DNA of 24,000 nt, from NCBI GenBank assembly GCA_024228935.1, contig JAAESX010000231.1, positions 32,172 to 56,171 on the forward strand, given 5' to 3'. The position numbers and the translations under genes were made by a program. This document shows positions 2,359 through 18,522 of this stretch, one piece after another. The stretch is from Pseudomonadota bacterium. Lineage in GTDB: Bacteria > Myxococcota_A > UBA796 > CAJQPC01. Every line of letters starts with the position of its first letter. Position 1 is the stretch's first letter. The notes under the pieces are model-generated. The model made no database searches. It saw only the letters and a program-made list of their open reading frames with translations, and had not been told where the DNA came from.

Positions 2359-2760
2359 TCAGCTCATCGCGGTGCGGGCCAGCCTCAGGTCCTCGTCGTC
2401 GTGGATCGGCACCGTGTTCGAGCCCTTTCCGCACTCGTCGCACTGCCCGATCTCGCAGATGCACCGGCAGTCCGTGCAGACGAAGTAGGGCTTCGGCGTG
2501 TTGACCAGCCGGTCCTCGAACGCCGGGTCCAGCGGCGATCGCTCCTTCAGCTTGAACTCGCCGTCTTCGGGGTTCCCGAAGACCAGCAGCAGCACGCCAA
2601 CGCCCACGAACGCCAGCGCCAGCGCGGGCAGCGCGATGAAGAAGCCGTTGGTCGAGACGTAGTCGATGGCCGTCACGGCCCCCAGCGCCGCGGCGATGGC
2701 GAGCGAGGCCACGCCGCCCTTGCGGCCGCTCGCGAGCAGGGCATCGATGATGGAGCTCAT
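2359..2760 (-). CDS. Small membrane protein: two TM helices plus a C-terminal six-Cys zinc-ribbon-like cluster
   Basis: Track ORF of 133 aa. Hydrophobic segments VASLAIAAALGAVTAIDYV and FFIALPALALAFVGVGVLLLVF. C-terminal CTDCRCICEIGQCDEC (nt 2431-2478). ATG lies 9 nt after the DUF58 stop. Last gene of the minus-strand array. Confidence 0.7.
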   Translation of the reverse strand: MSSIIDALLASGRKGGVASLAIAAALGAVTAIDYVSTNGFFIALPALALAFVGVGVLLLVFGNPEDGEFKLKERSPLDPAFEDRLVNTPKPYFVCTDCRCICEIGQCDECGKGSNTVPIHDDEDLRLARTAMS

Positions 2761-2769
2761 GCCCCGATG

Positions 2770-3606
2770 CTAACTGGCCGGGCCCAGGATCCCGCGGTCC
2801 AGCAGCACGCCGCACGACGTCTCCAGGTCGTCGTCGGCGCGAAGCGAGGCGAAGAGTCCGCCCCGCCGGCGGGCCTCCTCGGCCAGCCCGGCGTTCAGGC
2901 GGCCCAGCCGCTCCAGGTAGCGATCGACCGTCGTCCGATCCAGGACCAGCTCGACCTCGTCCTGGGTCTCGGCGTCGACGAGTCGGACCGAGCCGCCCAC
3001 CTCGGGCTCGGCGTCCCATGCGGACAGCACCTGGACCAGCGCGACCCGACCCGCGCGAAGGCCGCGGACGAGGGAGGGAGCTGCGTGAGGGGAGAGGAAG
3101 TCACTGATCAGGATGAGGAGCCCACCCGAGGTGGTGCGGACACCCGCCAGGGCCTCGACCAGGGGGCGCACCCCGACGAGCTCGGCGCCGTCGCCGAAGA
3201 GCTGGTCGGTGCCAGGGCGCTCGGCCCGGTCGCCCAGCAAGGTGACCCGCACGTAGAAGCCGTCCGCCGCGGCGGCGTGTGCGAAGAGTGCCGCCAGGTC
3301 GATCGCTCGCTGTTCCTTCTCGGGGTCGGTCGCCATCGAGGCGCTGGCGTCGACGAGCAGATCCAGGGTCGGGCGGACCTCCTCACGGTAGCGCTTCAGC
3401 AGCAGCTGGTCGGTGCGCGCGTACGCCCGCCAGTCCAGGTGCCGCACGTCGTCGCCGGGCTGGTACAGGCGGTGGTCGCGGAACTCCGTCGACGCGCCCG
3501 TTCCCTGGCCCGCATGGGTCCCGCTCGCACCCCGCGTCGGCGGCAGGCGCATCGACAGCGCGTACCGCTCGGCGAGGGCCAGCGCGTCAGGCCGGGGCCG
3601 AGCCAC
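2770..3606 (-). CDS. DUF58 family protein (vWA-like fold with MIDAS DxSxS), the usual MoxR partner
   Basis: Track ORF 2770-3636. Motifs G.H..G.G.EF.DHRLYQPGDDVRHLDWRAYARTDQLLLKRY (DUF58 signature) and LDLLVDASASMA (MIDAS-like). I prefer the GTG at 3606 because a GGAGG (3613-3617) sits 6 nt upstream. Alternatives are GTG 3636 (the track start) and ATG 3552. Confidence 0.8.
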   Translation of the reverse strand: MARPRPDALALAERYALSMRLPPTRGASGTHAGQGTGASTEFRDHRLYQPGDDVRHLDWRAYARTDQLLLKRYREEVRPTLDLLVDASASMATDPEKEQRAIDLAALFAHAAAADGFYVRVTLLGDRAERPGTDQLFGDGAELVGVRPLVEALAGVRTTSGGLLILISDFLSPHAAPSLVRGLRAGRVALVQVLSAWDAEPEVGGSVRLVDAETQDEVELVLDRTTVDRYLERLGRLNAGLAEEARRRGGLFASLRADDDLETSCGVLLDRGILGPAS

Positions 3607-5040
3607 CCGACGCCTCCGGGACGGCCTTCCGGGCACGGTTCAGCATCGCCAGCCCACGCATCATGCGAGGAAGGTTCACGAGGAACGTGACCGCCACGCC
3701 GATGACGATGGCGGGGTGGATCATGTTGTGGTCCCGCGTGGCCCACTCGATGGCGTAGATCGGGCTGCCGATGTGCTCGAAGTTCTCGAGGTCCCAGTCA
3801 TCGATGATGGCGCCGTACAGCGCAGGCAGGAACAGCGCGCACATGCAGAACGCCGGCACCGAGAACACGGAGACGACGCGCACCCACAGGTGGTGGGTCC
3901 AGCGCGCGAACGGCGCCGTCGGGAGGCCGACCGCGATGTAGAGGTACCCCGCCGCGGTCAGCACGCCGGGCACGTACTCCCCGGTCCAGTCCCGCACATC
4001 GATGGGCGGGACCAGGCACACGAAGAACACCATCGAGCCGAGCAGGACCGTCAAGTAGATGAACCCGTTGCCGGAGCCGGGCTGGAGCGGCGACGACAGC
4101 GCCGCGAACTTCTTTGGCACGTCGAGCCAGACCCGCCGGCCGAGCACCTCGGGCTCGGTCAGGAAGCCCATCATCGGGACCGTCAGCACGAAGCACAGGT
4201 AGGCGAACATCACCAGCGGGAGCTCGTCTTCGCCCGAGCCGCTGTACTGGACCCAGTAGACGCCGATGTGTCCGACGAGGCAGAGCGCCGCGACCAGGAT
4301 GCGCAAGGGACGCGAGCGGTTGGACTCGGGGTGGCTGATGCGGGCGACCGCGGCCGCGAACGCCAGCGCCGCGACGGCCCCGCCGTGGAAGACGATGGCC
4401 ATCCAGGCCCACTTGAACTCGTCGTCGGCCATCACGTCTGGCGAGCGGACCAGCTCCGAGCTCGCCGCGACAGCGATGCCGACCATCCACAGGAGCCCGC
4501 CGCCGATGACGGTCATCAGCAGGACGCGGAGCAGCTTGTTGGCGGTGAGCCAGGACGCCGCGATGGTCACCGCGGACAGGAACGCGCCGAAAAGGAGCGT
4601 GGTCAGCAGGATGACGCCGAACGCTCCCAGGTCCACGCCGGGCATCAGGAAGCCCAGACCGAGGAACGGCAGCAGCGCCAGGAAGAGCAGGCCGATCTGG
4701 ACGACCGAGGCCATCAAGCGGCCCTGCACGATCTGGCGTGGTGTCAGCGCCGTGAGCAGCAGCAGGTTGGTGCGCTCGGCGTCCCAGGTCCCACCCGCGG
4801 CGAGGAACGCCTGGAACGGGACCAGGCCCATCGTGCTGGCCGCGAGGCAGAAGTAGACGACGCCGAAGAAGACCGCGCCCAGCTCGTCGGGGTCGTCGAC
4901 CATTCCGAGCAGGAACGAGCCGATGATGGTCGCGGCCGCCAGCGCCAGCGCGTAGGTCCCCCAGAAGTACCGGCTGCGCAGCGCCTGCCGGACCTCCTTC
5001 ACGAGGATGGGGTTGAGGCGGTCGTCGAGCCACTGCATGG

Positions 5041-5044
<4 letters not shown>
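3587..5044 (-). CDS. ABC-2 type transporter permease-like membrane protein, about twice the usual size (roughly 12 hydrophobic segments)
   Basis: Track ORF of 485 aa. N-terminus MTMQWLDDRLNPILVKEVRQALRSRYFW is the typical ABC-2 permease lead-in. I count about 12 hydrophobic stretches by eye. ATG 5044 overlaps the ABC ATPase TGA (5041-5043) as ATGA. Confidence 0.7.
3613..3617 (-). promoter_or_regulatory. Shine-Dalgarno GGAGG, 6 nt upstream of GTG 3606 (inside the 3' end of the permease gene)
   Basis: Minus strand reads cccGGAGGcgtcggGTG. Confidence 0.5.
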
Positions 5045-5969
<925 letters not shown>

Positions 5970-5973
<4 letters not shown>

Positions 5974-7655
5974 GTGCCCTCCAGGACGCCGATGACCCAG
6001 TGCTCGCCGACCACTTCGCGGGGGTCCACGCCCTCGTCGTCGATGAACAGCGACGTGCCCAGGCGCGCGATGTAGCTGCCGTCGGGGAAGTCGAGCGCCT
6101 CGTGCGGCCAGACGGCCGACTGCCGCGTCGCCGTGTCGCTCTGCCACAGGCTCTCGAGCGCCGCGTCGATGTCCTCGGTGACCGTCAGCGAGGTCGCCGC
6201 GCCGGTCGCCAGAGGCTCGTCGAGGACGTACCAGGCGCCGCCCGAGCGCACGACGAGCTGCTCGATCTCCGCGCCGAGCGTGTTCGAGGCCTGCCCTCCG
6301 GTGAACTCCAGGCGCTCGCGGCGGGTCCCCTCACTGATGAGGACCTGGCGGATCGGCGCGCGGATCGGGACCAGGTCGCCGGAGACGACGCGGCCGCCAT
6401 CCCAGCTCGACTCGTAGCGGAAGTCCCAGTCCGGGCTGATGGGGAAGTGCCAGGTCCCGGGCTCGGGTCTCAGGCCCTTGCCTGGGGACAGGCCGAAGAA
6501 GATCTGCCGGACCGCATGGGTCGCCGCGGTGTGGTTCCGCTGGTCCAGCATCGTGATGCTGTAGCCGGCGGTCTGGACGCCCAGGCCGTTGTGGCTCAGC
6601 CCGTAGCCGACCATCAGGAGGGTCGAGCCGACGGCCAGGACGGGCGTCGTCACCAGCATCATCGACGGCCGCTTCAGGAGCTTCACGGCGAAGGCGTTCA
6701 GGGGCCCGAGCACCATCGCGACGCAGAACATCAGGAGCGCATACGCCCCACGGGGAAGCTGCTCGACGCCGGGGATCTCAGGCGCAGCTCCGCCGGTCTG
6801 GTAGGTGCCGCGAGGCAGGCGCTGGCTGATCTCGCTGCGGAACGAGGGCTGCACGATCGACTGGATTGTCAGCGGCTGCGCGGCCTCCTCGGGGCTGGCC
6901 ACGGAGAGCTGGCCCATGCCCATCGCCCAGGTGTTGATGCCCGGGAGCAGGCCCGCGTCGAGCCAGGGCTCCCAGGCGAAGCGGTCCTCCATCCACTCGG
7001 CGAAGACCGGCGCCGAGTGGACGTCTGCGGTGTCGCCCACGAGCACGACGGCGCCGCCCAGTCGGACCCATCCGGCGAGCCCTTCGAGCTGGTCTGCGCT
7101 GGGCATGCCTTCGGTGACGTCGACGATGACGAGGCCGAGCGACGTGTAGGCCCCGGGGTCCCGAGGCAGGTGGTCGAACGCGGCGGTCCCGGTCGCGTTG
7201 ACGTCCGAGAGGCTCAGCCGGTCGCGCCAGGTGTGCTCTTCCTCGAAGTCGTAGGCGGTCTTCGAGGCGAGCAGGACCGACCCCCGGTAGTCCGTGCCGA
7301 GCTCCGAGGGTCCCAGGGGAGACAGGGTGGTCAGCCACCGGCCCTCGTCCGTCACGGACATCGAGTGGCCCGCCACGTGTGGCATGAAGCTCGGGAGCAC
7401 GACCTCGAACTCGCGTCGCTCGCCGGGCTCGAGCTCGAGCACGCGCTCGGTGTTGCTCTGGTAGCCGTACGTCTCCGTGAACGTCAGCTCGATCTGCCGG
7501 TCTTCCTGGCTGGTGTTCTCGACCACGACCTGGACCGGGAAGTACCCGCGGTCCAGCCGCTCGGGCCAGGCGTACGTCGCCTCGACATGGATGCCGGACT
7601 TGGTGTCCGACTGGGTCGAGGCCGCCATCGCGGCACCCAGCAACAGCGCGGTCAT
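5970..7655 (-). CDS. Hypothetical membrane protein (561 aa): short signal-like N-terminus, about 300-aa exported domain, central TM hairpin, about 200-aa C-terminal domain; possible DUF4350/GldG-like segment
   Basis: Track ORF with good G/C at third positions. MTALLLGAAMAAS leader. A beta-sandwich-like stretch GYFPVQVVVENTSQEDRQIELTF. LGLVIVDVTEGMPSADQLEGLAGWVRLGGAVVLVGD resembles the spacing motif of DUF4350 / ABC-auxiliary (GldG) proteins (from memory). TM pair AYALLMFCVAMVLGPLNAFAV and MMLVTTPVLAVGSTLLMVGYGL. ATGA overlaps at both ends. Confidence 0.7.
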
Positions 7656-8674
7656 GCGACCTCGGGCGGGAGGGCCTCGGCGAGCTCGCTCACGGCGTCC
7701 AGGACAGCCGCGGCCACGGCCGGACCGTCGACGCCGTCGAGGCGGCCTCGGTAGTCGACGACGATCCGGTGGCCCAGCGCGTGGGGAGCGACCGCGTTGA
7801 CGTCGTCGAAGCCGACGTTGGGGCGGCCGGCCAGCAGGGCGTGGGCCCGGGCGGCCTCGGCGATGCCGATGGCGGCGCGGGGGCTGGCTCCGTACCGGAC
7901 GGAGCTCCGCACGATGTCGGGGGCGCCGATGCCATCGGGGTGCGTGGCGTCCACGATGCGGGCCGCGTAGCTGGCGACGGCCTTGGGCAGGAAGATGCGG
8001 TCGACGAGGCCGAACAGCTCGGTCAGGCGGGCGTGGTCGCTGACGGCGTGGGCCTCGGGGGGCTTGCCGCGTCGGCGGTCACGCAGCAGCGTCGTGAGCG
8101 TGTCGGCGCCCACCCGGTGGACGGACAGCTTGAAGAGGAAGCGGTCGAGCTGGGCCTCGGGCAGGGGGAACGTGCCCTCGAGCTCGATGGGGTTCTGCGT
8201 GGCCAGGACCCAGAAGGGGTCGGGCAGCTCGTGCGTCGTTCCGAGGACGGTGACGCTTCGCTCCTGCATGGCCTCGAGCAGGGCCGACTGGGTGCGAGGC
8301 GAGGCGCGGTTGATCTCGTCCGCCAGCACCAGGTTGCCGAAGACGGGGCCCTTGTGGAACACGAAGCGGCGCTGGCCGTCCTGCTCCTCGAGCACCTGGC
8401 CGCCCGTGATGTCGCCGGGCAGCAGGTCCGGGGTGAACTGGATGCGGGCGAAGTCGAGCCCCAGCAGGCCGGCGAGGCCCTTGACCAGCTCGGTCTTGCC
8501 GAGGCCGGGCAGGCCCTCGAGCAGCACGTGACCGCGGGCGAGCGCCGCGACGACGGTCAGGCGGACGAGCTGTTCCTGGCCGAGCAGGCGCTGGTTCAGC
8601 CCGTCGAGGAGGCCCTGTGCGAGCGCTTGTCCGCGCGCGACGTCGTCGGGGGAGAGGAGGTCCGAGGTGCTCAT
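7652..8674 (-). CDS. MoxR-family AAA+ ATPase
   Basis: Walker A EGLPGLGKT, Walker B LVLADEINRASPRTQSALLEAMQE, then VLATQNPIE..GTFPLPEAQLDRF and a C-terminal YGASPRA lid. True start is ATG 8674 (MSTSDLL), overlapping the upstream TGA (8671-8673). The 751-aa track ORF is an over-extension. Confidence 0.93.
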   Translation of the reverse strand: MSTSDLLSPDDVARGQALAQGLLDGLNQRLLGQEQLVRLTVVAALARGHVLLEGLPGLGKTELVKGLAGLLGLDFARIQFTPDLLPGDITGGQVLEEQDGQRRFVFHKGPVFGNLVLADEINRASPRTQSALLEAMQERSVTVLGTTHELPDPFWVLATQNPIELEGTFPLPEAQLDRFLFKLSVHRVGADTLTTLLRDRRRGKPPEAHAVSDHARLTELFGLVDRIFLPKAVASYAARIVDATHPDGIGAPDIVRSSVRYGASPRAAIGIAEAARAHALLAGRPNVGFDDVNAVAPHALGHRIVVDYRGRLDGVDGPAVAAAVLDAVSELAEALPPEVA

Positions 8675-9951
8675 TCGGTGTCGTCCGCTGCGAAGAAGGT
8701 GGACACGGCGTCCCGGTGTTCGGGGGCCAGGTCGCGGTGCCAGGTGGCGTCGCCCGCGGACATCGAGGTGGCCTCGGCGCCGGCGAACTGGCGGGTGGGG
8801 TCGACCTCGGCGTCCGCGAAGGCCTCGCCCAGGAGCATCGTGTGCTCCAGGTCGAGCTCGGCGCCGGGGGGCAGGATGGTCGGCTGGAACAGGGCGCTGC
8901 GGTCTTCGGCCTCGTCGCCGAAGGTCAGGTCCGCCGTGCCCGGTCCGCGCGTTATGCCGCCCTGTCCGGGGTCGCCGCTGCCAGCCAGGCTGAGCGCGAC
9001 GTCGCACTCGCTGGGGTTGTCGCAGGTGCCCTCGCCCTCGATGAGCTCGGCGCTCTCGAGGCGGACGCGGCCCTGGTCGATGGCCTGCTGGATGGCGTCG
9101 CCCAGCGCCTGCATCTGCTCGGCGGAGAGCTCGGACATCTGGGCCTGACCGGCCTCGCCGCGTGGCATGTCCTTCAGCTTCTCGGCCAGCTCGGGGGGCA
9201 GGTCCAGGCTGAAGCCCACCTCCTGGAGTGCGTCGAGCGCCTGCTGCATCGCCTTCTCGGGCGGGGCCTGGCCGTCGCGAGCGCGGGCCATTGCGTCCTC
9301 GGCGCGCTTGGCGGCGTCGTCCAGGTCCTCGGCCATCCGCCCCATGCGGTCCTCGGTGGCGTCGAGCGCCTCGAGCTGCGCCTCGGTGGCCTCGGTGGCC
9401 TTCTCCAGGTCCCGGATGTTCTCCTCGATCGCCTCGACCTCGGCCTCGTCCAGCTCGGCGACCTCGTCCAGGGCCTCGAGCTGCTCGTCCAGGTGCTCGA
9501 TGGTGGCCTCTGGGATGGCCGGCGCGGGCGGGGTCGGCGGGGCCGAGACCGGGATCAGGAAGGCGACGGCCAGGAACCCGGCGCCGGGGAGCGGCCAGGT
9601 CCAGGGCAGCGACAGGGTGGGCGCGGCGACCGAGGCGGGGACGGGCCAGCGTGGGTCCGGCTTCTCCAGCGCGGTCAGCACATCGCCGCGTCCGCCTCCG
9701 GCCCGGTCGAGCCAGGCGGCGGCGGTGGCGTCCGTGATGAAGCGGGCGCGCGCGACGACTAGCGCGGTCAGCGGCACGACGGCCAGCGGGATGAGGGCGG
9801 GCCACCAGGCGTCTCTCAGCCACAGTCGGAACACCAGGACGGCCGTCCCGCTCAGGAACAGGGCGACGGCGGCGTGCCGGAGTGCGGCGCCACCGAAAGC
9901 AGCCCACGCAACCCGTCGGCGGATGGCCGTGATGCGCTCGGCGATGCTCAC
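8671..9951 (-). CDS. Hypothetical membrane protein (426 aa): N-terminal TM segments plus a long hyper-acidic coiled-coil-like region; possibly DUF4175-like
   Basis: Track ORF; the start codon is GTG (9951-9949) with AGGA about 9 nt upstream. TM-like segments ALRHAAVALFLSGTAVLVF, WWPALIPLAVVPLTALVVA and GAGFLAVAFLIPV. Then EATIEHLDEQLEALDEVAELDEAEVEAIEENIRDLEKATEATEAQLEALDATEDRM... The C-terminal LAPEHRDAVSTFF resembles a P.eYr..v..YF tail I associate (from memory, unverified) with DUF4175-type proteins next to MoxR/DUF58. Confidence 0.65.
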   Translation of the reverse strand: MSIAERITAIRRRVAWAAFGGAALRHAAVALFLSGTAVLVFRLWLRDAWWPALIPLAVVPLTALVVARARFITDATAAAWLDRAGGGRGDVLTALEKPDPRWPVPASVAAPTLSLPWTWPLPGAGFLAVAFLIPVSAPPTPPAPAIPEATIEHLDEQLEALDEVAELDEAEVEAIEENIRDLEKATEATEAQLEALDATEDRMGRMAEDLDDAAKRAEDAMARARDGQAPPEKAMQQALDALQEVGFSLDLPPELAEKLKDMPRGEAGQAQMSELSAEQMQALGDAIQQAIDQGRVRLESAELIEGEGTCDNPSECDVALSLAGSGDPGQGGITRGPGTADLTFGDEAEDRSALFQPTILPPGAELDLEHTMLLGEAFADAEVDPTRQFAGAEATSMSAGDATWHRDLAPEHRDAVSTFFAADDTE

Positions 9952-10028: not shown

Positions 10029-11315
10029 TCAGTGCAACGTCGGCACCCACTCCATGTAGCCCAGCGCGGCGCCGATCTCGGTGTTGAGGCGCCACTCGAG
10101 GGTACCGTCCGGGGAGACCTTCTCGAGCTGTCCGCCCGTGCTCCACGTGACCAACCGAGCGCCGTCGGGGAGCCTGGCCACGTTGCCCAGGGCGTAGTTG
10201 AAGAGCTCGGGCTCGGTCCGGTAGGTGTCGACCTCCTCGGCCGTCCCGCCCTCGGTGTCGAGCGTGTACTCGACCACGCGGCTGTCCAGGTCGTCGGTCG
10301 TGCCGTTGTCGAAGACCAGCAGGCTGTCGCCGTCCAGATCGAACTGGTGCTGTTCGAGCGTGGTGCGGCGCTCCGCCTCGCCGACCAGCACGAGCGTGCC
10401 GTGCTCGCCGATGGCCCACTGCTCCTCGCCGGTCTGGGCATCGACGTGCACCACCGTGTTCAGGTTTCGAATCGACAGCGTGTATGCGTCGAGCTCCTCG
10501 CTGTAGTCGACCGCATTGGCGTGCGTGTAGTTCCGCAACATCTCGGGTGTCTTGGCCAGCTCCTCGGTCCAGGGCCGGTCGTCCCAGCTCGTCCAGATGG
10601 TCTCGAGGTCATCGCCGTGGACCTCGACGATGGAGTCGCCGGTCACCAGTCGGCCCTCGATCTCGCGCTTGTCGCTGACGATGGCGGCGTAGCCGTCGGG
10701 CAGGAGCGCGAAGTCGTGATGGAAGCCAGGCACCTGGATCGTGTGGATCGAGGTCTGCTCCCAGTCGACCTCGATGATCTCGGAGACCCGTCCCTCGGCC
10801 TCGATGTCGTTGGTCGAGGTGCCGAAGACGACCCCGCTGCCGTCCGGGAGGAGCCAGGCGCGCACGACCAGGATGTCGTCGCGGGCGTCCTTGAACCACC
10901 AGACCGGCGTGCCTTCGTGGTCGAGGATGAGCGGCCCCGAGGCGGCGCTGACGAACGTGCCGATGATGAACCCGCTGTCCAGCGGCTCGCCGAAGGTCTC
11001 GACGTCCATCTCCGGGATGTCGGTGGGCACGTTGCCCGTGCTGATGACGCCGCTCTGCGTCCGGCCGTCGTCGTGCTGGACCGTGTAGCCGTAGCTGCGC
11101 TGGGGGCCGAGCCCGACCACGAGCGCCGTGCCATCGCCCTCGAACTCCTGCACGAGCGCGCCGTCGAGGCGGATCTCCACCGTCGCCGGGCCCTCGTCCC
11201 AGGTCAGGCGCGCGACCGTGGGGATCGACTCGGCGAGCTTGACGTGGACGGGCAGATCGCCGAGCGCGGTGGGGTCGGCGCAGGCCAGGAGGAGAAGCAC
11301 TCCCCTTCCTATCAC
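10029..11315 (-). CDS. Arylsulfotransferase (ASST) family beta-propeller lipoprotein
   Basis: Motifs FHHDFALLPDG, YTHANAVDYSEELDAYTLSIRNLNTVVHVDAQTGEEQWAIGEHG and EQHQFDLDGDSLLVFDNG match the ASST family pattern as I recall it. I prefer the GTG at 11315-11313, giving (M)IGRGVLLLLAC with lipobox LLAC, and overlapping the upstream TGA (11312-11314) as GTGA. The track start at 11435 adds Arg-rich nonsense. Confidence 0.72.
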   Translation of the reverse strand: MIGRGVLLLLACADPTALGDLPVHVKLAESIPTVARLTWDEGPATVEIRLDGALVQEFEGDGTALVVGLGPQRSYGYTVQHDDGRTQSGVISTGNVPTDIPEMDVETFGEPLDSGFIIGTFVSAASGPLILDHEGTPVWWFKDARDDILVVRAWLLPDGSGVVFGTSTNDIEAEGRVSEIIEVDWEQTSIHTIQVPGFHHDFALLPDGYAAIVSDKREIEGRLVTGDSIVEVHGDDLETIWTSWDDRPWTEELAKTPEMLRNYTHANAVDYSEELDAYTLSIRNLNTVVHVDAQTGEEQWAIGEHGTLVLVGEAERRTTLEQHQFDLDGDSLLVFDNGTTDDLDSRVVEYTLDTEGGTAEEVDTYRTEPELFNYALGNVARLPDGARLVTWSTGGQLEKVSPDGTLEWRLNTEIGAALGYMEWVPTLH

Positions 11316-12541
11316 TCCGGGGCGGAGGAATCCTCTCTCGTCGGCTGGGCGAGCACCTCGTCGGCGAGCTCGACCAGAGCGCCCTGGAACGACGGGGCCC
11401 AGCGCGGGTCGACGAGGCGTGCCTTCACGAGCCACACGTCGGCGGCTTCGGCGTCGCGGTGGACCTCGGGGTCGCGACCAGGGGCGAGGTACGGCGAGGT
11501 CAGGGCGAGCTCGTGCAGGGCCTGGCGGATGACCAGCGCGTCGATGCCATGGCGCACGTGGACTCGGACCAGGACGGGGACGAAGCGGTCCGGATCGGAC
11601 TCGACGATGGCCTCGAGCAGGGCCCGGTTCGGGACCGTGACGGCGCGTCCGTCGTCCCCGACCAGCTCGACGTAGCGGAGCCCGACGGTGCGGACGACGC
11701 CGGCCAGGTGTCGGCCATCAGCGTGCAGCTCGACCCGCTGGTTCTTCACGAGCCGGTGCTCGACGACCAGCACGACGCCGGCGATGACATCCCGCAGGAC
11801 GTCCCTCGCGGTCCAGCCCACGGCGAGCGCCGCCCCGATGAAGACGTAGGCGGGAGCTGGGTTCACGCCGTGCGGCAGGATCATCAACCCACCCACCAGC
11901 ACGGCGGCCAGGGTCGACAGGCGCAGCACGACGACCAGGCCGCGGAGCCCGAGCGGGATGAGGCCGCGCGAGGGGAGCGTGGCCAGGGGGCCGTTCTCGA
12001 TGGCTCGGGTGATCAGGACGAGGAGGATCGCCAAGAGGCCCGACAGGAGGGCTCGACGGAGCGAGGGCTCCGGGGTGACGGGCAGCAGGCGGTGGTGCTC
12101 GGGCTGCGGCGCGGGCGCTGGCTCGGAGGCGTCGGGCTGGGGGGCCGGGGGCGAGGGCTCGGTCGGGTCGGCCGCCGGCTCGGCGTCCGGGTCGGCGGGC
12201 GTGCCCTCGGGGGACTCCGCCTGTCCGGGCTCGGTGGGGGCCTCCGGACCGAACAGGGTCCCGTCGACATACGGCGCCCCCTCCACCACGATGCGTCCGG
12301 ACAGCGGGTCGATGACGTCGACGCCGCGCTGGAAGCCTTCGGCCGGCTGGAACCCGTCGGGCCAGGGTCCGAGGACGTGCTCGCGCGCGCCGTCGTCCTC
12401 CGGTGGCTGCCATGGCTCGGGCGGGGCTGTGTCCTCGGGGGGAGCCGTGTCCTCGGGCGGGGCCGTGTCGACCGCCTCGTCGGGCTCGACGGGCGTGACC
12501 TCGACGGGGTCCTGGGCCAGGGCGAGAGCGATCCAGATCAT
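11312..12541 (-). CDS. MscS-family mechanosensitive channel-like protein with a Pro/Glu/Asp-rich exported N-terminal extension
   Basis: Core FIGAALAVGWTARDVLRDVIAGVVLVVEHRLVKNQRVEL..GRHLAGVVRTVGLRYVELVGDDGRAVTVPNRALL matches the MscS TM3 plus beta-domain pattern, preceded by three TM segments. Start is ATG 12541 (MIWIALALAQDP), overlapping the upstream TGA (12538-12540). The track ORF (to 13201) is over-extended. Confidence 0.75.
   Translation of the reverse strand: MIWIALALAQDPVEVTPVEPDEAVDTAPPEDTAPPEDTAPPEPWQPPEDDGAREHVLGPWPDGFQPAEGFQRGVDVIDPLSGRIVVEGAPYVDGTLFGPEAPTEPGQAESPEGTPADPDAEPAADPTEPSPPAPQPDASEPAPAPQPEHHRLLPVTPEPSLRRALLSGLLAILLVLITRAIENGPLATLPSRGLIPLGLRGLVVVLRLSTLAAVLVGGLMILPHGVNPAPAYVFIGAALAVGWTARDVLRDVIAGVVLVVEHRLVKNQRVELHADGRHLAGVVRTVGLRYVELVGDDGRAVTVPNRALLEAIVESDPDRFVPVLVRVHVRHGIDALVIRQALHELALTSPYLAPGRDPEVHRDAEAADVWLVKARLVDPRWAPSFQGALVELADEVLAQPTREDSSAPE
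12416..12469 (-). repeat. 3 x 18-nt imperfect tandem repeat encoding (DTAPPE)x3 within the MscS-like gene
   Basis: Plus strand reads ctcgggcggggctgtgtc / ctcggggggagccgtgtc / ctcgggcggggccgtgtc. The protein reads DTAPPEDTAPPEDTAPPE. Confidence 0.9.
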
Positions 12542-15500
12542 CCGTCCAGCCCCCTCTCCCGAAGCACGACGCGCAGCGCCGCGGCCAGGTGGCCGGCCAG
12601 GGCGTAGCGGCCTCGCCGAGTGCGGCGCACCAGGCCCAGGTGGGCGAGCCGCGACAGGTCCGCGCCCGAGTGGTCGGGGTCCCGGCGGAACTGACGCGCA
12701 TGGAGCGAGACGTCGATGCGACCCTGCCGCGCCAGCTGGCGAAGGGTGAGCAGGGACTCGTCGTCCAGCGCTCGCACCGAGGCCAGCGGCGCCGCTGGTA
12801 CGTCCCCGAGCACGAGCACGTCGTTCTGCGTGTCGACCTCGATCACCGAGGCCATCCACAGCCGCAGGGCATCGGACAGCAGACCACCCGTCGCCTCGAA
12901 CAGGTCCTCGAAGTAGTGCTCCTCGATGCGTTCGTCGGCGCCCCCGCGCGAGGTCGCGCGCCGCAGCCACTGGCCGAGATGGGCGTCGGTCTCGGCGAAG
13001 CGCAGGCCGTACCCGCTCATCCGGTGCCGCCCCAGGAGCGCCCGGCGCAGCGAATCGGGGTCCAGCGGGCCGAGCTCCAGTCGGTGCGGGAACACGTCGC
13101 GCATGCTGACCACGCGGTCGGCGTAGGCCCAGACGCTGGGGTCGATCGACAGCACGAACGCGTTGTTCCCGTCGTCGTCGATGACCTCTCGGGCGAAGCA
13201 CCGCAGCGCCTCGAACCCGCCCGGCTCGATGGAGAACAGCCAGTGCGCGCCTTCGACGACGACGACCACGCCGCCGGTGGCCTTGGCCTCGATGCGCTCG
13301 ATCTCGGCCAGGTCCCGGACCGGCTCGGTCAGCACGTGGCGAGCGACCTTGGCGGGCAGGCCCCGGACCAGCGCGTTGACCGCGGCGCCGCGCGTGTCTT
13401 CCCCGCTTCCCAGGATGGCGACCGAGCGGCTGCGACCCGCGCCCTCACCGACCAGGACCCGTCGCAAGGCCTCGAGCTCGAGCTCCCGGCCCTCCAACAG
13501 GTCGGTGACCTCGAGCGCGGCGTCGCTGAACAGCCGCCGGAAGACGGCGGGCAGCTCGATGGCCGGCCGGACCTCGGCGAAGGTCTCTGGTCCGACCTCG
13601 GCGGTCGCGGTCTCGGGGAGCCCCAGGGACCGGCGGATGGTCGCGTAGCCCTCGGGGCCCATCGCGCGCTGGACGGCCTCGCCCAGGTGGTCCCTCAGGT
13701 CGGTCAGTGACTCGGCGCCGCCGGTGATGAGGCGCCGGCGTCGGGCGAGCTTGCCGCGGTTCAGTCGGCGGCGGACCTCGTCCCACTGCCCTCCGACGAG
13801 CAGTCCGTGAAGGGCCTCGATGTGTCGGAAGACGGCGTCCTGGATGCGGCCGGCGGCGTCGGCGCCCAGCTCGCTGTTCGCCGCGTGCAGCTGGCCGAGT
13901 CGTCCCGCCAGGCGCTGGAGGGTCGCCAGGAGCGTCTCCCGCAGGATCTCTCGAGCGGCGACGGGCACCACATCGGCCTGGGCCAGCACGGTCAGCTCGG
14001 TGTGGGTCAGGTCCAGGTTGAACTTGAGGCTGCGCTCGAGCTCCTCCATCCCTCGCGCGATGACCTCGACCTGCTCGAGCAGCTCCTCGACCAGCAGCGA
14101 CAGGTCCCGGCCCACCTCGGCGTCCAGGTAGGTGGCGGCGAGCTCGCGGAAGGCCACGTCCTCGATGCGCGGCGCAGCGGGCAGGCGTCGTCCCGACAGG
14201 CCGGGCGGATTCACGGCGACGTCGAACCGGTCGGTCAGTCCGTCGACGCTCCCGGCCAGCGCGTTGCGTAGGGGCTCGATGGCGGTCTCGGTGCGCAGAC
14301 CGGCGCGAACGGTCTCAGCGACCGAGAGCGCGTCGTCGACCACGTGCAGGATGGCGGTGCAGGCCGTCCGGATCCGGGCCTCGAGCTCGTCGGGCCCCAC
14401 GTCGCTGGCGATGTCTTCGTCGAGCTGGGTGATGGCCGCGTCCAGGGCCTCGACGATGCGCCCGAGCTGCAGCACGACCTTGCCGGACAGGTCGCGGGCG
14501 AGCGTGTCCGAGTGCGCGTCGACGGCGTCACGGGCGCTGTCCGCCAGCCGCACGAGCTGGAGCTCCATCGCCATGCCGGCGGCGACACCACGGGTCAGCA
14601 GGTGGGCGTGTCCAAGGCCCTCGAGGAGCTCGCGGATGGCCTCCTCGCGCGCCTGGTAGACCTTGCTGAACCGGTAGTGGCGAGAGCGCAGCTCGGGCGT
14701 ACCGGCGATGGCCAGCGCCCGGTTGAACTGCTTGTAGGGACGACCCAGCGCGGCCGCGGCCACCCGGACGGTCTCGTCGGCCAGCCGGTCGACCTCGCGC
14801 TGGGCGAGCTGGAACTCCTCCTCGAGCTCCCCGCGGAGCGAAGCGAGCAGCGGGTCCCACGAGCCCGGCTCGAAGTCGTCGTGCGCGAGCAGCTCGTCCT
14901 CGCTCTTCCGCAGGACCTCGAACACGTTGCGCGTGCGGGCCAGGAGGTGTCGCTCGGACAGGGCCATGAGGCCGGCCAGCTCGCCCAGGTGCAGGGGCGC
15001 GTGGCCGGACAGCGTGAACCGGGCCAGTGGGCGCAGCTCGACGATGCGCATGGGCTCGCCGAGGCCGATGGCCCGAGCCGCTCGAACCAGGCCCTTGTTG
15101 AGTCCGAGCCAGGGGCCGTCACCCGGCCGGGCCGCGACCAGGCGGTCCTCCAACGGGACCTCGGTCGCCGAGGGGAGCGCGTCGACGAGCCGGTCGATGG
15201 CCCGGAGCATCTCCTGCAGCACGTCGGCCTCGCGCCGGAAGTCGACGCTCGCGGCCCGGTCCAGGATGTGGTCCTCCCAGGTCCGAGCGAGCTGGGCCCG
15301 GCTGTCCCGCACGGCCCGCGCCATGTCCTCGCGGGTCGTGTTGGGGTCGCAGGCCTTCACCTGGAGTCGGCGGTGGTAGCGCAGGAACTCCCGCCGGAGC
15401 TGGCCCAGGAACTGCTGTGCGGTCTGACGGCGCGCGCTCGTGGTGCTCGACCGGACCTCGCGCGTCAGGGTCTGGAGGTCACCCTTCAGGTTGCGGCTGG

Positions 15501-17019
15501 TCTTCAGGAGCTTCCGCCAGGTGACGTCCGGGGGCTCGCCCCAGGGGTCGAACTGCGTGTGGCCCGGCTCGGGCAGCCACTCGGGGAGACGGGTGTCCGG
15601 CTCGGGGTCGTCCTCGGCGAGCGTGAACGCCTCGTCCAGGGTCGGGTCGTCGTCCTGAGGGACCTCCTTGGCGATGCCGAGCGCGACCTTCAGCAGGACG
15701 GGGCCGACCATCTCGTTCAGCGCGATGCCTGCGACGGCCATCGTCGCCAGGTCGGCGCCGACCCCACCGAAGCCGGCGATGACGGTCGCCATGGCCAGCG
15801 CGATGCCGGCCTGGGCGCCGAAGCCCAGGAAGCCCCACTTCGCCAGGATCTCGGGTCCCTGACCGACCCGCGTGCCGGCGGCGGTCCCGAGCCACAGCGC
15901 GAGCATGCGGCCGGCGAACAGGACCCCGGCGAACGCGGCGCTCGCCACCAGCCCCTGCAGGTCGAGGTGGGCGCCGGCCAGGAAGAAGAACACGACGTAG
16001 ATCGGCATCGACAGCCGATCGACCGCGGACTTGAGCTGATCGTGTGCGGCCGGCCGGGTGAAGTTCCGGACGACGAAGCCGGCGAACAGGAACGCCAGCA
16101 ACGCATCCACGCCGACCTGGGCGGCCAGGTAGGTGATGCCGAAGCACAGCCCGGTGAGGATCAGCAGGAGCTCGTTGCCGATCCATCGGGTGACCAGCGC
16201 GATGCCGCCGCCCATCGCGCCGCCGAGCACGACCGCGCCGCCGATCTTGATGAGCAGCTCGAGCGCCAGCCCCTGCTCGCTCGGCGGCGCACCGAAGCGA
16301 GGTCCCAGCACGCTGATCGCGGCCGCGAACAGCACGACGACGACCACGTTGTTCAGGACCGAGACACCCAGGACCGTGTCGGTGACCGGCCCTCGCGAGC
16401 GCGTCTCGTGGACGATGGCGATGCTCGCAGCGGGGCTCATCGCGGCGCCGACGACAGCCAGGAGGACCGCCGCGCCGATGCGCACGTCCTGGGGCTGGTC
16501 GACCAGGAAGGGCAGCGCGAACCCATCGATCGGGCCGGAGATCAGCCAGACCAGGCCGCCCAGGATCGAGAGAAGGGCCACGTACTGGAGCGTCAGGACC
16601 GAGCTGAAGAGCCGGGCTCCGCGCCGCAGCGTGCCCAGCTCGAGCGCGCCGCCGGCCGACAGCGCGATGAGCGCCACGGCCAGGTCGTTGAAGAGCGACA
16701 GCTCCTCGACCGTCTCGTGGTCGAGCATCGTCATCCAGTGCGGCGTGTGCAGCACCTCGTGCGCGTGGTGGCCGAGCAGGATGCCGGTGACGAGGTACGC
16801 CGTGATGTGCGGCAGCTTGATGGTCTCGGCGAGCTCGCCAAGGGTGTAGGCGGCCAGGATGATGAAGCCGAACGTCGCCATCGCGACCGGGTTCAGGAGC
16901 CCCTCGTGCGGCGTGTGGACCGCTTGCAGGAAGAGCATCAGGACGAACAGGAGCCCGACGATGAGCGCCTTGGTCAGCCCGTCGCCGAGCGTGATCTTCT
17001 TGTGGCCGCCGCCCGACAT
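12538..17019 (-). CDS. Giant (1,493 aa) fusion: CPA2-type cation/proton-antiporter-like membrane domain + long helical cytoplasmic region + C-terminal degenerate STAND/AAA_16-like NTPase with winged helix
   Basis: Start is ATG 17019-17017 (MSGGGHKKITLGDG), whose A is shared with the trkH TGA. Residues about 1-450 are Na+/H+ exchanger-like (IKLPHITAYLVTGILLG...). The cytoplasmic part starts near nt 15660. NTPase-like block GRELELEALRRVLVGEGAGRSRSVAILGSGEDTRG (13387-13500), VVVVVEGAHWLF (13231-13275) and LELGPLDPDSL. The wHTH-like C-terminus is LTLRQLARQGRIDVS...LGLVRRTRRGRYAL. The 1,921-aa track ORF is an in-frame read-through into trkH. Confidence 0.8.
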   Translation of the reverse strand: MSGGGHKKITLGDGLTKALIVGLLFVLMLFLQAVHTPHEGLLNPVAMATFGFIILAAYTLGELAETIKLPHITAYLVTGILLGHHAHEVLHTPHWMTMLDHETVEELSLFNDLAVALIALSAGGALELGTLRRGARLFSSVLTLQYVALLSILGGLVWLISGPIDGFALPFLVDQPQDVRIGAAVLLAVVGAAMSPAASIAIVHETRSRGPVTDTVLGVSVLNNVVVVVLFAAAISVLGPRFGAPPSEQGLALELLIKIGGAVVLGGAMGGGIALVTRWIGNELLLILTGLCFGITYLAAQVGVDALLAFLFAGFVVRNFTRPAAHDQLKSAVDRLSMPIYVVFFFLAGAHLDLQGLVASAAFAGVLFAGRMLALWLGTAAGTRVGQGPEILAKWGFLGFGAQAGIALAMATVIAGFGGVGADLATMAVAGIALNEMVGPVLLKVALGIAKEVPQDDDPTLDEAFTLAEDDPEPDTRLPEWLPEPGHTQFDPWGEPPDVTWRKLLKTSRNLKGDLQTLTREVRSSTTSARRQTAQQFLGQLRREFLRYHRRLQVKACDPNTTREDMARAVRDSRAQLARTWEDHILDRAASVDFRREADVLQEMLRAIDRLVDALPSATEVPLEDRLVAARPGDGPWLGLNKGLVRAARAIGLGEPMRIVELRPLARFTLSGHAPLHLGELAGLMALSERHLLARTRNVFEVLRKSEDELLAHDDFEPGSWDPLLASLRGELEEEFQLAQREVDRLADETVRVAAAALGRPYKQFNRALAIAGTPELRSRHYRFSKVYQAREEAIRELLEGLGHAHLLTRGVAAGMAMELQLVRLADSARDAVDAHSDTLARDLSGKVVLQLGRIVEALDAAITQLDEDIASDVGPDELEARIRTACTAILHVVDDALSVAETVRAGLRTETAIEPLRNALAGSVDGLTDRFDVAVNPPGLSGRRLPAAPRIEDVAFRELAATYLDAEVGRDLSLLVEELLEQVEVIARGMEELERSLKFNLDLTHTELTVLAQADVVPVAAREILRETLLATLQRLAGRLGQLHAANSELGADAAGRIQDAVFRHIEALHGLLVGGQWDEVRRRLNRGKLARRRRLITGGAESLTDLRDHLGEAVQRAMGPEGYATIRRSLGLPETATAEVGPETFAEVRPAIELPAVFRRLFSDAALEVTDLLEGRELELEALRRVLVGEGAGRSRSVAILGSGEDTRGAAVNALVRGLPAKVARHVLTEPVRDLAEIERIEAKATGGVVVVVEGAHWLFSIEPGGFEALRCFAREVIDDDGNNAFVLSIDPSVWAYADRVVSMRDVFPHRLELGPLDPDSLRRALLGRHRMSGYGLRFAETDAHLGQWLRRATSRGGADERIEEHYFEDLFEATGGLLSDALRLWMASVIEVDTQNDVLVLGDVPAAPLASVRALDDESLLTLRQLARQGRIDVSLHARQFRRDPDHSGADLSRLAHLGLVRRTRRGRYALAGHLAAALRVVLRERGLDG

Positions 17020-18506
17020 CAGCGCCTCCAGAACCCTGGCGTGAGGAGCGCCAGGATGGTGAAGAACTCGAGGCGACCGAGCAGCATGAGCCCGGAGAGG
17101 ACGACCTTGGTCGGGCCGGTGAAGAAGCCGAAGTGGTCCGTCGGACCGACCAGGCCGAAGCCGGGACCGACGTTGCTGACGCAGGCGAGTGACGCCATGA
17201 TCGAGGTGGTCCCGTCGGTCTGCTCGACCAGCGCAACCCAGACGGCGCCGATGGCCACGGTCAGCACGTACAGGCCCATGAAGGCCAGGATGCCGGTCAG
17301 CTGCTGGCTGGAGACGGACGAGCGACCCACGCGCACCGGCTCGACCAGGTGGGGGCGGAACGAGCGCTTGAGCTCGGCCACGGCGGCCTTCACGAGGATG
17401 ATGACCCGGATGAGCTTCATGCCGCCCGCGGTGGAGCCCGAGCAGCCTCCCGTGAAGTAGAGGCCGAGCAGGAGCATGCGCGTCACGCTCGGCCAGGTCT
17501 CGAAGTCGTGCGTCCCGAAGCCTGTCGTCGACATGACCGAGGCGGTCTGGAAGCTGGCGTAGCGCAGCGCGTTGCCGATGCCGTACTGGCTGGCGAGCGC
17601 CAAGGCGCAGACGCCCGTCACGGCGGCCAGGATGGCGACGTAGACCCGGGTCTGGGTGTCCTTCAGCATCACGGTCGGGCCGCGCTTGATGGCCTCGGGG
17701 ATGAGCCCGAAGTTCAGCCCTGCGATGACCATGAACACCAGGATGATCATCTCGACGACCACGTTGTCGAAGTCCGCGACCGAGCCATTCATGGTGGAGA
17801 AGCCGCCGGTCCCGAGCGTGCTGAACGCGTGGGTGATGGCGTCGAATGGGGACAGCCCGGCGAGCCAGAGCGCGCCGGCCTCGAACAGCGTGAAGCCCAG
17901 GTAGACCTTCCACAGCACGCTCGCGCTCTCGCGGATGCGCGGCGAGAGGCCCTTGGTCTTGGGGCCGGGGGCCTCGCCGCGGAACAGGTGCTTGCCACCG
18001 ACGCCGAGCGCGGGGAAGACGGCGACGAAGAGGACGACGATGCCCATCCCGCCCAGCCAGTGACTGAGCATCCGCCAGAAGTGCAGGGCCGGGTTCAGCC
18101 TCTCCTCGATCTCGGGGAGGATGGTCGCGCCGGTCGTGGTGAACCCGCTGGTCGACTCGAAGATGGCATCGGCCAGCGTGAAGTCGGCCCCGATGACGAA
18201 CGGCACGCCGCCGGCCACGCAGAGCGCGACCCAGGAGATGGTGACGACGAGCAAGGCCTCGCGGCGGTCGAGGTCCTCGAGCGAGGCCTCCCGCCCGACC
18301 CACAGCGACATGCCAGCGAAGGCGCCGACCAGGGCTGCGCTCCCCGCCATCTGCAGGGCGCCCTCGGTCGAGCCCATGGCGACGCCCACCAGGCCGGACA
18401 CCGCCATCGCCAACGCGACACCCACCATCAACAGGCCGACGGGCCGTGCCACCTGGGGGACACGGCTCCGCAGCTCGCCGAAGCGCCAGCGCGCGCGGCG
18501 ACTCAT
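17019..18506 (-). CDS. trkH: TrkH-type K+ uptake membrane subunit
   Basis: Pore-loop style motifs SGFTTTGAT, FSTLGTGGFST, MSTTGFGT and GGCSGSTAGGMK. Start is ATG 18506 (MSRRARWRFGE), 16 nt after the trkA stop. The track start at 18617 lies inside trkA. Confidence 0.9.
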   Translation of the reverse strand: MSRRARWRFGELRSRVPQVARPVGLLMVGVALAMAVSGLVGVAMGSTEGALQMAGSAALVGAFAGMSLWVGREASLEDLDRREALLVVTISWVALCVAGGVPFVIGADFTLADAIFESTSGFTTTGATILPEIEERLNPALHFWRMLSHWLGGMGIVVLFVAVFPALGVGGKHLFRGEAPGPKTKGLSPRIRESASVLWKVYLGFTLFEAGALWLAGLSPFDAITHAFSTLGTGGFSTMNGSVADFDNVVVEMIILVFMVIAGLNFGLIPEAIKRGPTVMLKDTQTRVYVAILAAVTGVCALALASQYGIGNALRYASFQTASVMSTTGFGTHDFETWPSVTRMLLLGLYFTGGCSGSTAGGMKLIRVIILVKAAVAELKRSFRPHLVEPVRVGRSSVSSQQLTGILAFMGLYVLTVAIGAVWVALVEQTDGTTSIMASLACVSNVGPGFGLVGPTDHFGFFTGPTKVVLSGLMLLGRLEFFTILALLTPGFWRR

Positions 18507-18522
18507 CGGGTGGGGCCCGGGC

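Follow-up and report, generated by a model that had tools for sequence, protein, structure and literature searches.

The 24,000-nucleotide stretch analysed here (the window; positions 32,172 to 56,171, forward strand, of contig JAAESX010000231.1 in assembly GCA_024228935.1, a Pseudomonadota bacterium placed by GTDB in Myxococcota_A) contains an operon of six genes whose order is kept across Planctomycetota, Myxococcota and Verrucomicrobiota. In the direction of transcription, the genes encode a membrane protein (g1), a MoxR-type AAA+ ATPase (g2), a membrane-hairpin protein (g3), an ATP-binding cassette (ABC) ATPase (g4), an ABC-2 permease (g5) and a DUF58 protein resembling von Willebrand factor A (vWA) domains (g6). 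The six-gene operon is real and its arrangement is far beyond chance, because the same order recurs in three phyla. It is probable that the six core products form one inner-membrane assembly and that they represent, among the Bat/MoxR-DUF58 envelope systems, a branch with an ABC transporter. Operons of the MoxR-DUF58 and Bat kinds occur very widely, and they have lacked a mechanism for more than two decades. In the branch described here, MoxR and DUF58 are linked to a defined membrane engine driven by ATP and to the g3 proteins, a very large family without a name. The operon occurs in cultured Planctomycetota and in the genetically tractable Myxococcus xanthus (in the neighbourhood of MXAN_6476), so that the target of MoxR/DUF58 action becomes open to direct testing.

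To assess the conservation of the operon, genomes were scanned with a g5 profile, one genome per species, which yielded 80 loci, mostly from Planctomycetota, with some from Myxococcota and a few from Verrucomicrobiota (numbers with the prefix L denote related loci). The seven window proteins, including the product of a seventh gene, g7, were compared by phmmer with the six-frame open reading frames (ORFs) of all loci, and gene content was tallied on the 50 loci with enough flanking sequence. The arrangement g1-MoxR-g3-ABC ATPase-permease-DUF58, in this order and on one strand, was found in 43 of the 50 loci. Three further loci carried five of the genes with g1 undetected, and four, of a Pirellulaceae type, carried g3, the ABC ATPase and the permease alone. 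Context look-ups with g3 and g5 homologues returned the same order in metagenomic Myxococcota, Saltatorellus ferox Poly30, Corallococcus and M. xanthus, where MXAN_6476 is the g3 orthologue. In the most distant relatives the identity of g3 is down to 24–29%. A sequence-only reading of the window had described a seven-gene cassette and named synteny as its test; six of the genes hold together in this way, while g7 was detected in four loci only.

The seven ORFs, correctly placed by that reading, lie on the minus strand between positions 2359 and 9951, and the G+C content of the window is about 70% throughout. Proteins 100% identical to g3 and to the permease are encoded in a metagenome-assembled genome deposited as 'Proteobacteria bacterium'. 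A script check of the junctions confirmed the four ATGA stop/start overlaps it had reported (8671–8674, 7652–7655, 5970–5973 and 5041–5044), as well as a 20-nt overlap between the permease stop codon (3587–3589) and the GTG start of the DUF58 gene (3606), and a 9-nt gap between the DUF58 gene and g7 (2761–2769). The 20-nt overlap is repeated in the independent gene calls of the relatives L001 and L004, which supports GTG 3606 as the DUF58 start. These two loci keep the overlap (3587–3606 in the window) at just 44–58% permease identity, and in more distant members the permease and DUF58 genes overlap by 4 nt instead. Stop/start overlaps, of either 4 nt or 8–20 nt, recur in the gene calls of L001, L003, L004, L006 and L090.

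The two genes that define the MoxR-DUF58 pair were assigned by Pfam well above the gathering scores, as had been claimed for both. The g2 product matches AAA_3 (expectation (E) value 8.5e-62, 207 bits against a cut-off of 27) and AAA_lid_2 (E 2.8e-17, 62.7 bits against 22.7), with a further match to bpMoxR (E 2.7e-12). Its Walker A (GLPGLGKT, at amino acid (aa) 54) and Walker B (LADEINR, at aa 117) motifs are intact, and GLPGLGKT and LADEINRA are kept in at least 90% of 58 homologues. The g6 product matches PF01882 (DUF58; E 1.6e-22, 80.3 bits against 23.4) and carries a metal ion-dependent adhesion site (MIDAS), DASAS, encoded at 3337–3351; the DxSxS and SDFL motifs are kept in at least 90% of 69 homologues. 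No transmembrane (TM) segment and no signal peptide were predicted for g6.

Between these two genes lies the ABC module. The ATPase assignment of g4 proved correct: the protein matches ABC_tran (E 3.6e-25, 89.6 bits), has a C-terminal DrrA1-3_C domain and contains Walker A (GPNGAGKT, aa 36), signature (LSKGM, aa 135) and Walker B (LILDEP, aa 156) motifs. Together with the H-loop, all four ABC motifs are present, and GPNGAGKTT, LSKGM.QR, ILDEP and SSH are kept across 76 homologues. The best NCBIfam match of g4 is GldA (TIGR03522; E 1.4e-69), although its 234.9 bits fall below the cut-off of 402.6; the protein is also DrrA-like. The permease had been called an ABC-2 protein of roughly 12 TM segments. 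The g5 product itself has no Pfam or NCBIfam match, but 10 of 52 homologues match ABC2_membrane_3 (best E 1.3e-7), and the AlphaFold2 (AF2) model built from these 52 homologues (pLDDT 91.4) shows 12 helices in two halves of six. In Foldseek searches of the PDB, the halves resembled CcmB (probability 1.0, target-normalised TM-score 0.63) and NosY (probability 0.99), as well as Wzm and KpsM, with weak E-values (0.18–1.8) despite the high probabilities. The best whole-chain structural match was 8k1n_C, a 530-residue chain of a mycobacterial efflux pump which we take to be a fused ABC-2 permease. Because of the homologue matches and the likeness of the 12-helix model to CcmB/NosY, we conclude, on transitive and structural evidence, that g5 is a fused 12-TM ABC-2 permease. 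Its conserved motifs are NP(I/V)LVKEVR at the N-terminus and HPEENRS in the second half. The CcmB and NosY systems pass cofactors to periplasmic partners, in haem or copper delivery, and are not known to pump solutes.

The g3 product had been regarded as bitopic, a description that does not hold. In the AF2 model (pLDDT 83, pTM 0.83) the 561-aa protein consists of a short signal-peptide-like N-terminus, a beta-sandwich (aa 13–114), an alpha/beta domain (aa 127–253), a central two-helix TM hairpin and a C-terminal beta-rich domain (aa 360–557). The hairpin has a short basic loop, KLLKRPS, predicted to be cytoplasmic, and G317, P318 and P338 are invariant. A periplasmic location is predicted for the two large domains, given the canonical Sec-type signal peptides at the start of g3 homologues and the basic character of the hairpin loop. 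The only Pfam indication for g3 itself is a DUF4350 match below threshold (E 0.014, 16 bits against a cut-off of 30.4). For its alpha/beta domain, on which this match also falls, weak signals came from a ThuA-like PDB chain (E 0.024) and, in relatives, from DUF4350 (E 0.0045) and Glyco_hydro_42M (E 0.039). These matches, all below threshold, suggest the flavodoxin-like fold that was linked to GldG by Makarova et al. A PDB search of the g3 model with Foldseek gave generic beta-sandwich matches only, with TM-scores below 0.2, and no fold was assigned. An exhaustive profile search shows that g3 belongs to a very large unnamed family of about 10,000 representatives at the 50% identity level (10,359 at E ≤ 1e-3; 2,863 at E ≤ 1e-30), and no Pfam model scored above threshold in 24 sampled members. 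UniRef labels some members, MXAN_6476 included, as 'DUF4350 domain-containing protein'. In the Pirellulaceae-type loci L008, L074, L076, L081, L084 and L085, a longer g3-like protein (about 770 aa) is encoded with an ABC ATPase and a permease and with no adjacent MoxR, DUF58 or g1 gene.

Homologues of g1 stand upstream of MoxR in 43 of the 50 loci. The protein had been described as a TM protein with an acidic coiled-coil region, in agreement with the three hydrophobic segments that hydropathy predicts to be TM helices and with a measured excess of 69 Asp and Glu over 19 Lys and Arg residues across 292 aa. The loop between the second and third segments is basic and conserved (AAWLD..GG.G). The segments are followed by the long acidic coiled coil, by Cys310-x5-Cys316 and by a C-terminal W.R.L.P.HR.AV..FF motif. 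Apart from coiled-coil noise, no Pfam or NCBIfam family was found for g1; DUF4175, a family put forward for checking by the sequence-only reading, was not matched either.

In most Planctomycetota loci g1 appears to be split. All 32 interrupted genes continue in the same frame and the interrupting stop codon is TGA in each, with C..xCKxPGGT-UGA-(K/S/R)G as its conserved surroundings; two in-frame UGAs occur in three of the loci. The loci include L003, L006 (S. ferox Poly30), L015, L017, L018, L020, L022, L023, L025 and 23 others (example site spans are L025:3880–3937 and L006:5734–5791). The UGA aligns with a Cys in the uninterrupted homologues of L004, L009, L073 and the window, where it corresponds to Cys316 (codon 9004–9006), and window Cys310 aligns with the conserved upstream Cys of the UGA-bearing proteins. 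In several of the loci examined (e.g., L020, L046 and L025) the conserved GG(V/I)xRG peptide starts ahead of the first available start codon, and the UGA must therefore be read through in those loci.

About 18–24 nt 3' of the UGA lies a 7-bp helix with a GUG, GGU or GGG loop. Across the alignment, 86.4% of cells are paired and compensatory changes occur at all seven pairs; the covariation score was reached by none of 500 shuffles and the count of pairs changed on both sides by one of 500, while in slid controls pairing was just 31–53%. With its G-rich triloop the hairpin satisfies the published criteria for a bacterial selenocysteine insertion sequence (bSECIS; PMC13188914). Rfam returned nothing at the gathering threshold on eight of the UGA-site loci, and neither a matching motif string nor any mention of MoxR, coiled coils or membrane proteins was found in a 2026 selenoproteome review. 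We regard Planctomycetota g1 as a candidate new selenoprotein family, of which the window protein carries Cys at the site. The selenocysteine (Sec)/Cys site suggests that redox or metal chemistry takes place at the g1 ectodomain and offers a chemical handle on the function of the operon. As the g1 proteins of M. xanthus and L007 lack the Cys motif, redox chemistry is not a universal core function, and the motif marks lineage-variable chemistry instead.

The relation of the operon to Bat systems is indicated by its neighbours. In 43 of 55 related loci, a protein with a BatA N-terminal domain (about 600 aa) and a vWA protein (about 920 aa) are encoded within 7 kb downstream of DUF58, directly following on the same strand in 12 loci and convergent in 31; in M. 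xanthus they are co-directional. The larger neighbour is a vWA plus GATase1-like protein, and profile-profile comparison found it unrelated to g3 (probability 0.6%). It is on account of this adjoining pair that we place the cassette as an ABC-containing branch of the Bat/MoxR-DUF58 systems. In the window, tblastn with BatA-like and vWA queries gave nothing better than E 0.1, and the pair is also absent from the eight closest marine relatives; the window shows a minimal form of the branch. With Bat operons, the cassette shares a MoxR AAA+ ATPase and a MIDAS-bearing DUF58 protein in one operon, together with predicted membrane or periplasmic partners. It differs from them in that the ABC ATPase, the fused ABC-2 permease and g3 stand between MoxR and DUF58, and g1 ahead of MoxR, while no equivalents of the tetratricopeptide-repeat protein BatC, of BatD or of BatE were seen. 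Published results on an aerotolerance or oxidative-stress phenotype of Bat systems conflict; roles suggested for Bat proteins are the reduction of periplasmic proteins and the export of reducing equivalents to the periplasm (PMC3557215).

A second known kind of neighbourhood comes close. MoxR (COG0714), vWA and GldG-like DUF4350/arCOG01314 proteins have been predicted to form, in archaea and bacteria, a complex for secretion or membrane remodelling (Makarova, Galperin & Koonin 2015, PMC5898192). Shared with the present operon are MoxR, a protein of the vWA/DUF58 kind and a secreted protein anchored in the membrane, the DUF4350 likeness of g3 being sub-threshold. Here, however, an actual ABC ATPase and permease accompany the GldG-like protein, and g3, unlike the arCOG01314 proteins with their single C-terminal anchor, combines a TM hairpin at its centre with an additional domain at the C-terminus. 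A full-text literature search found no account of MoxR/DUF58 joined to an ABC-2 transporter and no function assigned to such an arrangement. The remark that the cassette could not be matched to a characterised system was accordingly borne out for the system as such, but its kind is known from the Bat/MoxR-DUF58 and MoxR-vWA-DUF4350 neighbourhoods.

That the six products act as one assembly is in our view the best reading, because it best accommodates the conserved gene order and overlaps, the intactness of the motifs and the way in which the predicted locations complement one another. What the analysis establishes are gene identities, folds, motif conservation, synteny and overlaps; the physical complex, its topology, direction of action and cargo are proposed. 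MoxR, DUF58 and the ABC ATPase would reside in the cytoplasm, and the membrane would hold g5, the hairpin of g3 and the TM segments of g1. Two copies of g4 would sit on the 12-helix g5, which in turn would contact the hairpin of g3, so that the periplasmic g3 domains, one of them GldG/DUF4350-like, might be moved or fed by ATP hydrolysis rather than serve simple solute pumping. By analogy with NosFY driving NosD and CcmAB serving CcmE, the ABC-2 engine may act on or through g3 and g1. The latter, with three TM segments, would be a partner that exposes its acidic coiled coil and its Cys-x5-Cys (Cys/Sec) motif to the periplasm. On the cytoplasmic side, a hexamer of MoxR could assemble, load or remodel the membrane complex with the MIDAS-bearing DUF58 protein as its adaptor, DUF58 possibly making contact through MIDAS-mediated binding. 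The sequence-only reading had likewise envisaged a single envelope machine made up of MoxR/DUF58 and an ABC system. Six-gene synteny and conserved overlaps favour this idea, but the machine itself is an inference, and so is an exporter role in which MoxR/DUF58 would assemble or gate the transporter.

Several observations weigh against the proposed assembly. The four Pirellulaceae-type loci hold g3, the ABC ATPase and the permease without MoxR, DUF58 and g1; this triad can therefore stand alone, and it may be the older module. The DUF4350/GldG-like assignment of g3 comes only from sub-threshold matches (E 0.0045–0.04), and the topologies only from hydropathy and the positive-inside rule. In M. 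xanthus and L007, as described above, g1 lacks the Cys motif. Deletions of bat genes in Leptospira gave no phenotype (PMC3557215), and a full-text search for MXAN_6473–6478 returned nothing.

Among the alternatives, delivery of a cofactor or of redox power survives best and is itself a more specific version of the one-assembly reading. The ABC-2 module would provide metal, thiol or reducing equivalents to the periplasmic g3 and g1, and MoxR/DUF58 would be a metal-insertion chaperone comparable to NorQD and CoxDE. The permease halves are indeed closest in fold to CcmB and NosY, although the Foldseek E-values are weak (0.18–0.87) where the probabilities are high. The g1 Cys-x5-Cys motif, with its second Cys replaced by an in-frame UGA and followed by a covarying SECIS-like hairpin in the 32 Planctomycetota loci, points the same way, but the motif is lacking in M. 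xanthus and L007. No metalloenzyme or oxidoreductase gene is conserved beside the operon. Compared with NosDFY and CcmAB, the operon has an ATPase of the same broad class, permease halves like NosY/CcmB and a membrane-anchored periplasmic partner. On the other hand, g5 has its 12 TM segments in one chain instead of forming a homodimer, and the Nos and Ccm systems are not known to use MoxR/DUF58. NosD is a beta-helix, a fold that g3 lacks: its model combines beta-sandwich, alpha/beta and beta domains, and NosD was not among its PDB matches. No nosZ, nosL or ccm genes were found nearby, and no nos genes in the window. MoxR/vWA pairs do insert metal cofactors, NorQD being an example (PMC9976466), and Bat proteins have been proposed as exporters of reducing equivalents (PMC3557215). 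Taken together, we hold cofactor delivery to be unlikely; if true, it would supply a concrete transporter for the old idea that Bat exports reducing power. That the ABC-2 engine, loaded or remodelled by MoxR/DUF58, works as a periplasmic redox or cofactor machine on a Cys/selenocysteine g1 and a GldG-like g3 we consider less likely still. Such a machine would provide the transporter that is missing from the long-standing view of Bat-type MoxR systems as exporters of reducing power to the envelope, and would bring with it a new selenoprotein family.

Alternatively, the ABC genes could encode an ordinary ABC-2 exporter for drugs, lipids, polysaccharides or peptides, to which g3 would be accessory, next to an unrelated MoxR/DUF58 pair. 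The DrrA/GldA/NodI-like character of g4, the mycobacterial fused ABC-2 efflux pump as best whole-chain match of g5 and the occurrence of the triad without MoxR/DUF58 in a few Pirellulaceae loci would all suit such an exporter. However, MoxR and DUF58 flank the ABC genes in 46 of the 50 loci, in three phyla and with conserved overlaps, and a chance juxtaposition would not outlast divergence to the low g3 identities given above. As synteny opposes it, an independent exporter appears quite improbable.

The fact that M. xanthus, a gliding bacterium, carries the operon raises the possibility of a gliding-motility ABC system of the GldA/GldF/GldG type. GldA is the best equivalog match of g4, DUF4350 is related to GldG (PMC5898192), and g3 may share the GldG/DUF4350 fold. 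The membership tests nevertheless failed, which makes a Gld system less likely: the GldA score (235 bits) is below the cut-off, NCBIfam listed nothing for g5 or g3 at E ≤ 0.1, and the Pfam matches of the two, all unrelated or sub-threshold, include no GldF, GldG or ABC_transp_aux model. The MoxR/DUF58 pair sets the operon further apart, and the taxa differ, its carriers being mostly Planctomycetota. Planctomycetota are not known to have the Bacteroidota gliding apparatus. We regard a gliding system as highly improbable.

Very little probability is also left for membrane-proximal unfolding or degradation of the MoxR-vWA-YebA transglutaminase-like type, or for an anti-phage/conflict system of the MoxR-vWA ternary type: MoxR-vWA pairs with membrane partners, including MoxR-vWA-transglutaminase operons, are predicted membrane-proximal degradation systems (PMC3495828) and g2 also matches bpMoxR, but Pfam and NCBIfam found no peptidase, transglutaminase, beta-propeller or effector domain in the operon, PADLOC yielded coiled-coil and generic ABC noise only, G+C is uniform with the flanks, and conservation tracks lineages, unlike that of a defence island. 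Degradation is thus made less likely by the missing peptidase, and defence by the lack of model matches and of an island signature; a defence island was rejected for want of a GC anomaly and of matches to defence models.

Table 1. Features of the window, and of related loci where a locus number is given, with their positions and basis.
Feature	Position	Strand	Remarks
g1	8671..9951	-	426 aa, GTG start; first gene of the conserved operon
CDNPSEC codons of g1 (Cys310 to Cys316)	9004..9024	-	Alignment with Planctomycetota homologues
g2, MoxR-type AAA+ ATPase	7652..8674	-	340 aa; ATGA overlaps with g1 and g3 at its two ends
g3	5970..7655	-	561 aa; AF2 model, signal peptides in homologues
g3 membrane hairpin (two-helix, aa 302–356)	6588..6752	-	AF2 model, conservation
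g4, ABC ATPase of DrrA/GldA/NosF type	5041..5973	-	310 aa; Pfam/NCBIfam
g5, single-chain ABC-2 (type V) permease	3587..5044	-	485 aa; AF2, Foldseek, homologue Pfam matches
g6, DUF58 (vWA-like)	2770..3606	-	278 aa counted from GTG 3606; PF01882
g7	2359..2760	-	133 aa, two TM segments; lineage-specific addition
BatA-like + vWA pair, L090 (M. xanthus CP017170)	14180-19755		
BatA-like + vWA pair, L003	15199-19712		
Second permease paralogue, L054	9463-10962		
Second permease paralogue, L056	9490-10989		
Second permease paralogue, L065	9473-10936		
Second permease paralogue, L051	6846-8315		
Second permease paralogue, L063	4802-6262		
Second permease paralogue, L073			
Second permease paralogue, L032			

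The seventh gene of the cassette, g7, is a lineage-specific addition outside the conserved core (Table 1), detected in the close relatives L004, L005, L009 and L010 only. Its product had been announced as a two-TM protein with a Cys6 zinc ribbon. The two TM segments are there, but just four of the six Cys residues are conserved; these four are invariant and form a Cys4 zinc-ribbon-like C-terminus, CxxC-x8-CxxC. No Pfam or NCBIfam family was found for the protein.

A scan for promoters and terminators between 1800 and 11600 detected no promoter-like site and a single terminator-like site, which lies on the wrong strand and is no more than shuffled sequences give. A Sulfotransfer_3-family gene on the plus strand (1513–2355) converges on g7, with three bases separating the stop codons, and the same scan found no terminator-like hairpin between the two genes. 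Upstream, the minus strand carries between 10029 and 19866 an arylsulfotransferase-like gene (10029–11435), an MscS-like channel gene, a very long ORF and a TrkA gene (18523–19866). Both the arylsulfotransferase-like gene and the convergent sulfotransferase gene were considered as members of the operon and rejected, because neither is kept beside the cassette in relatives. The long ORF (12538–18303) encodes up to 1921 aa with an Na+/H+ exchanger domain, and versions of about 1500 aa occur in L004 and L007. The Na+/H+ exchanger and MscS genes accompany the cassette in close relatives only. In some Planctomycetota loci, a second, tandem 12-TM permease paralogue lies between the first permease and DUF58 (Table 1).

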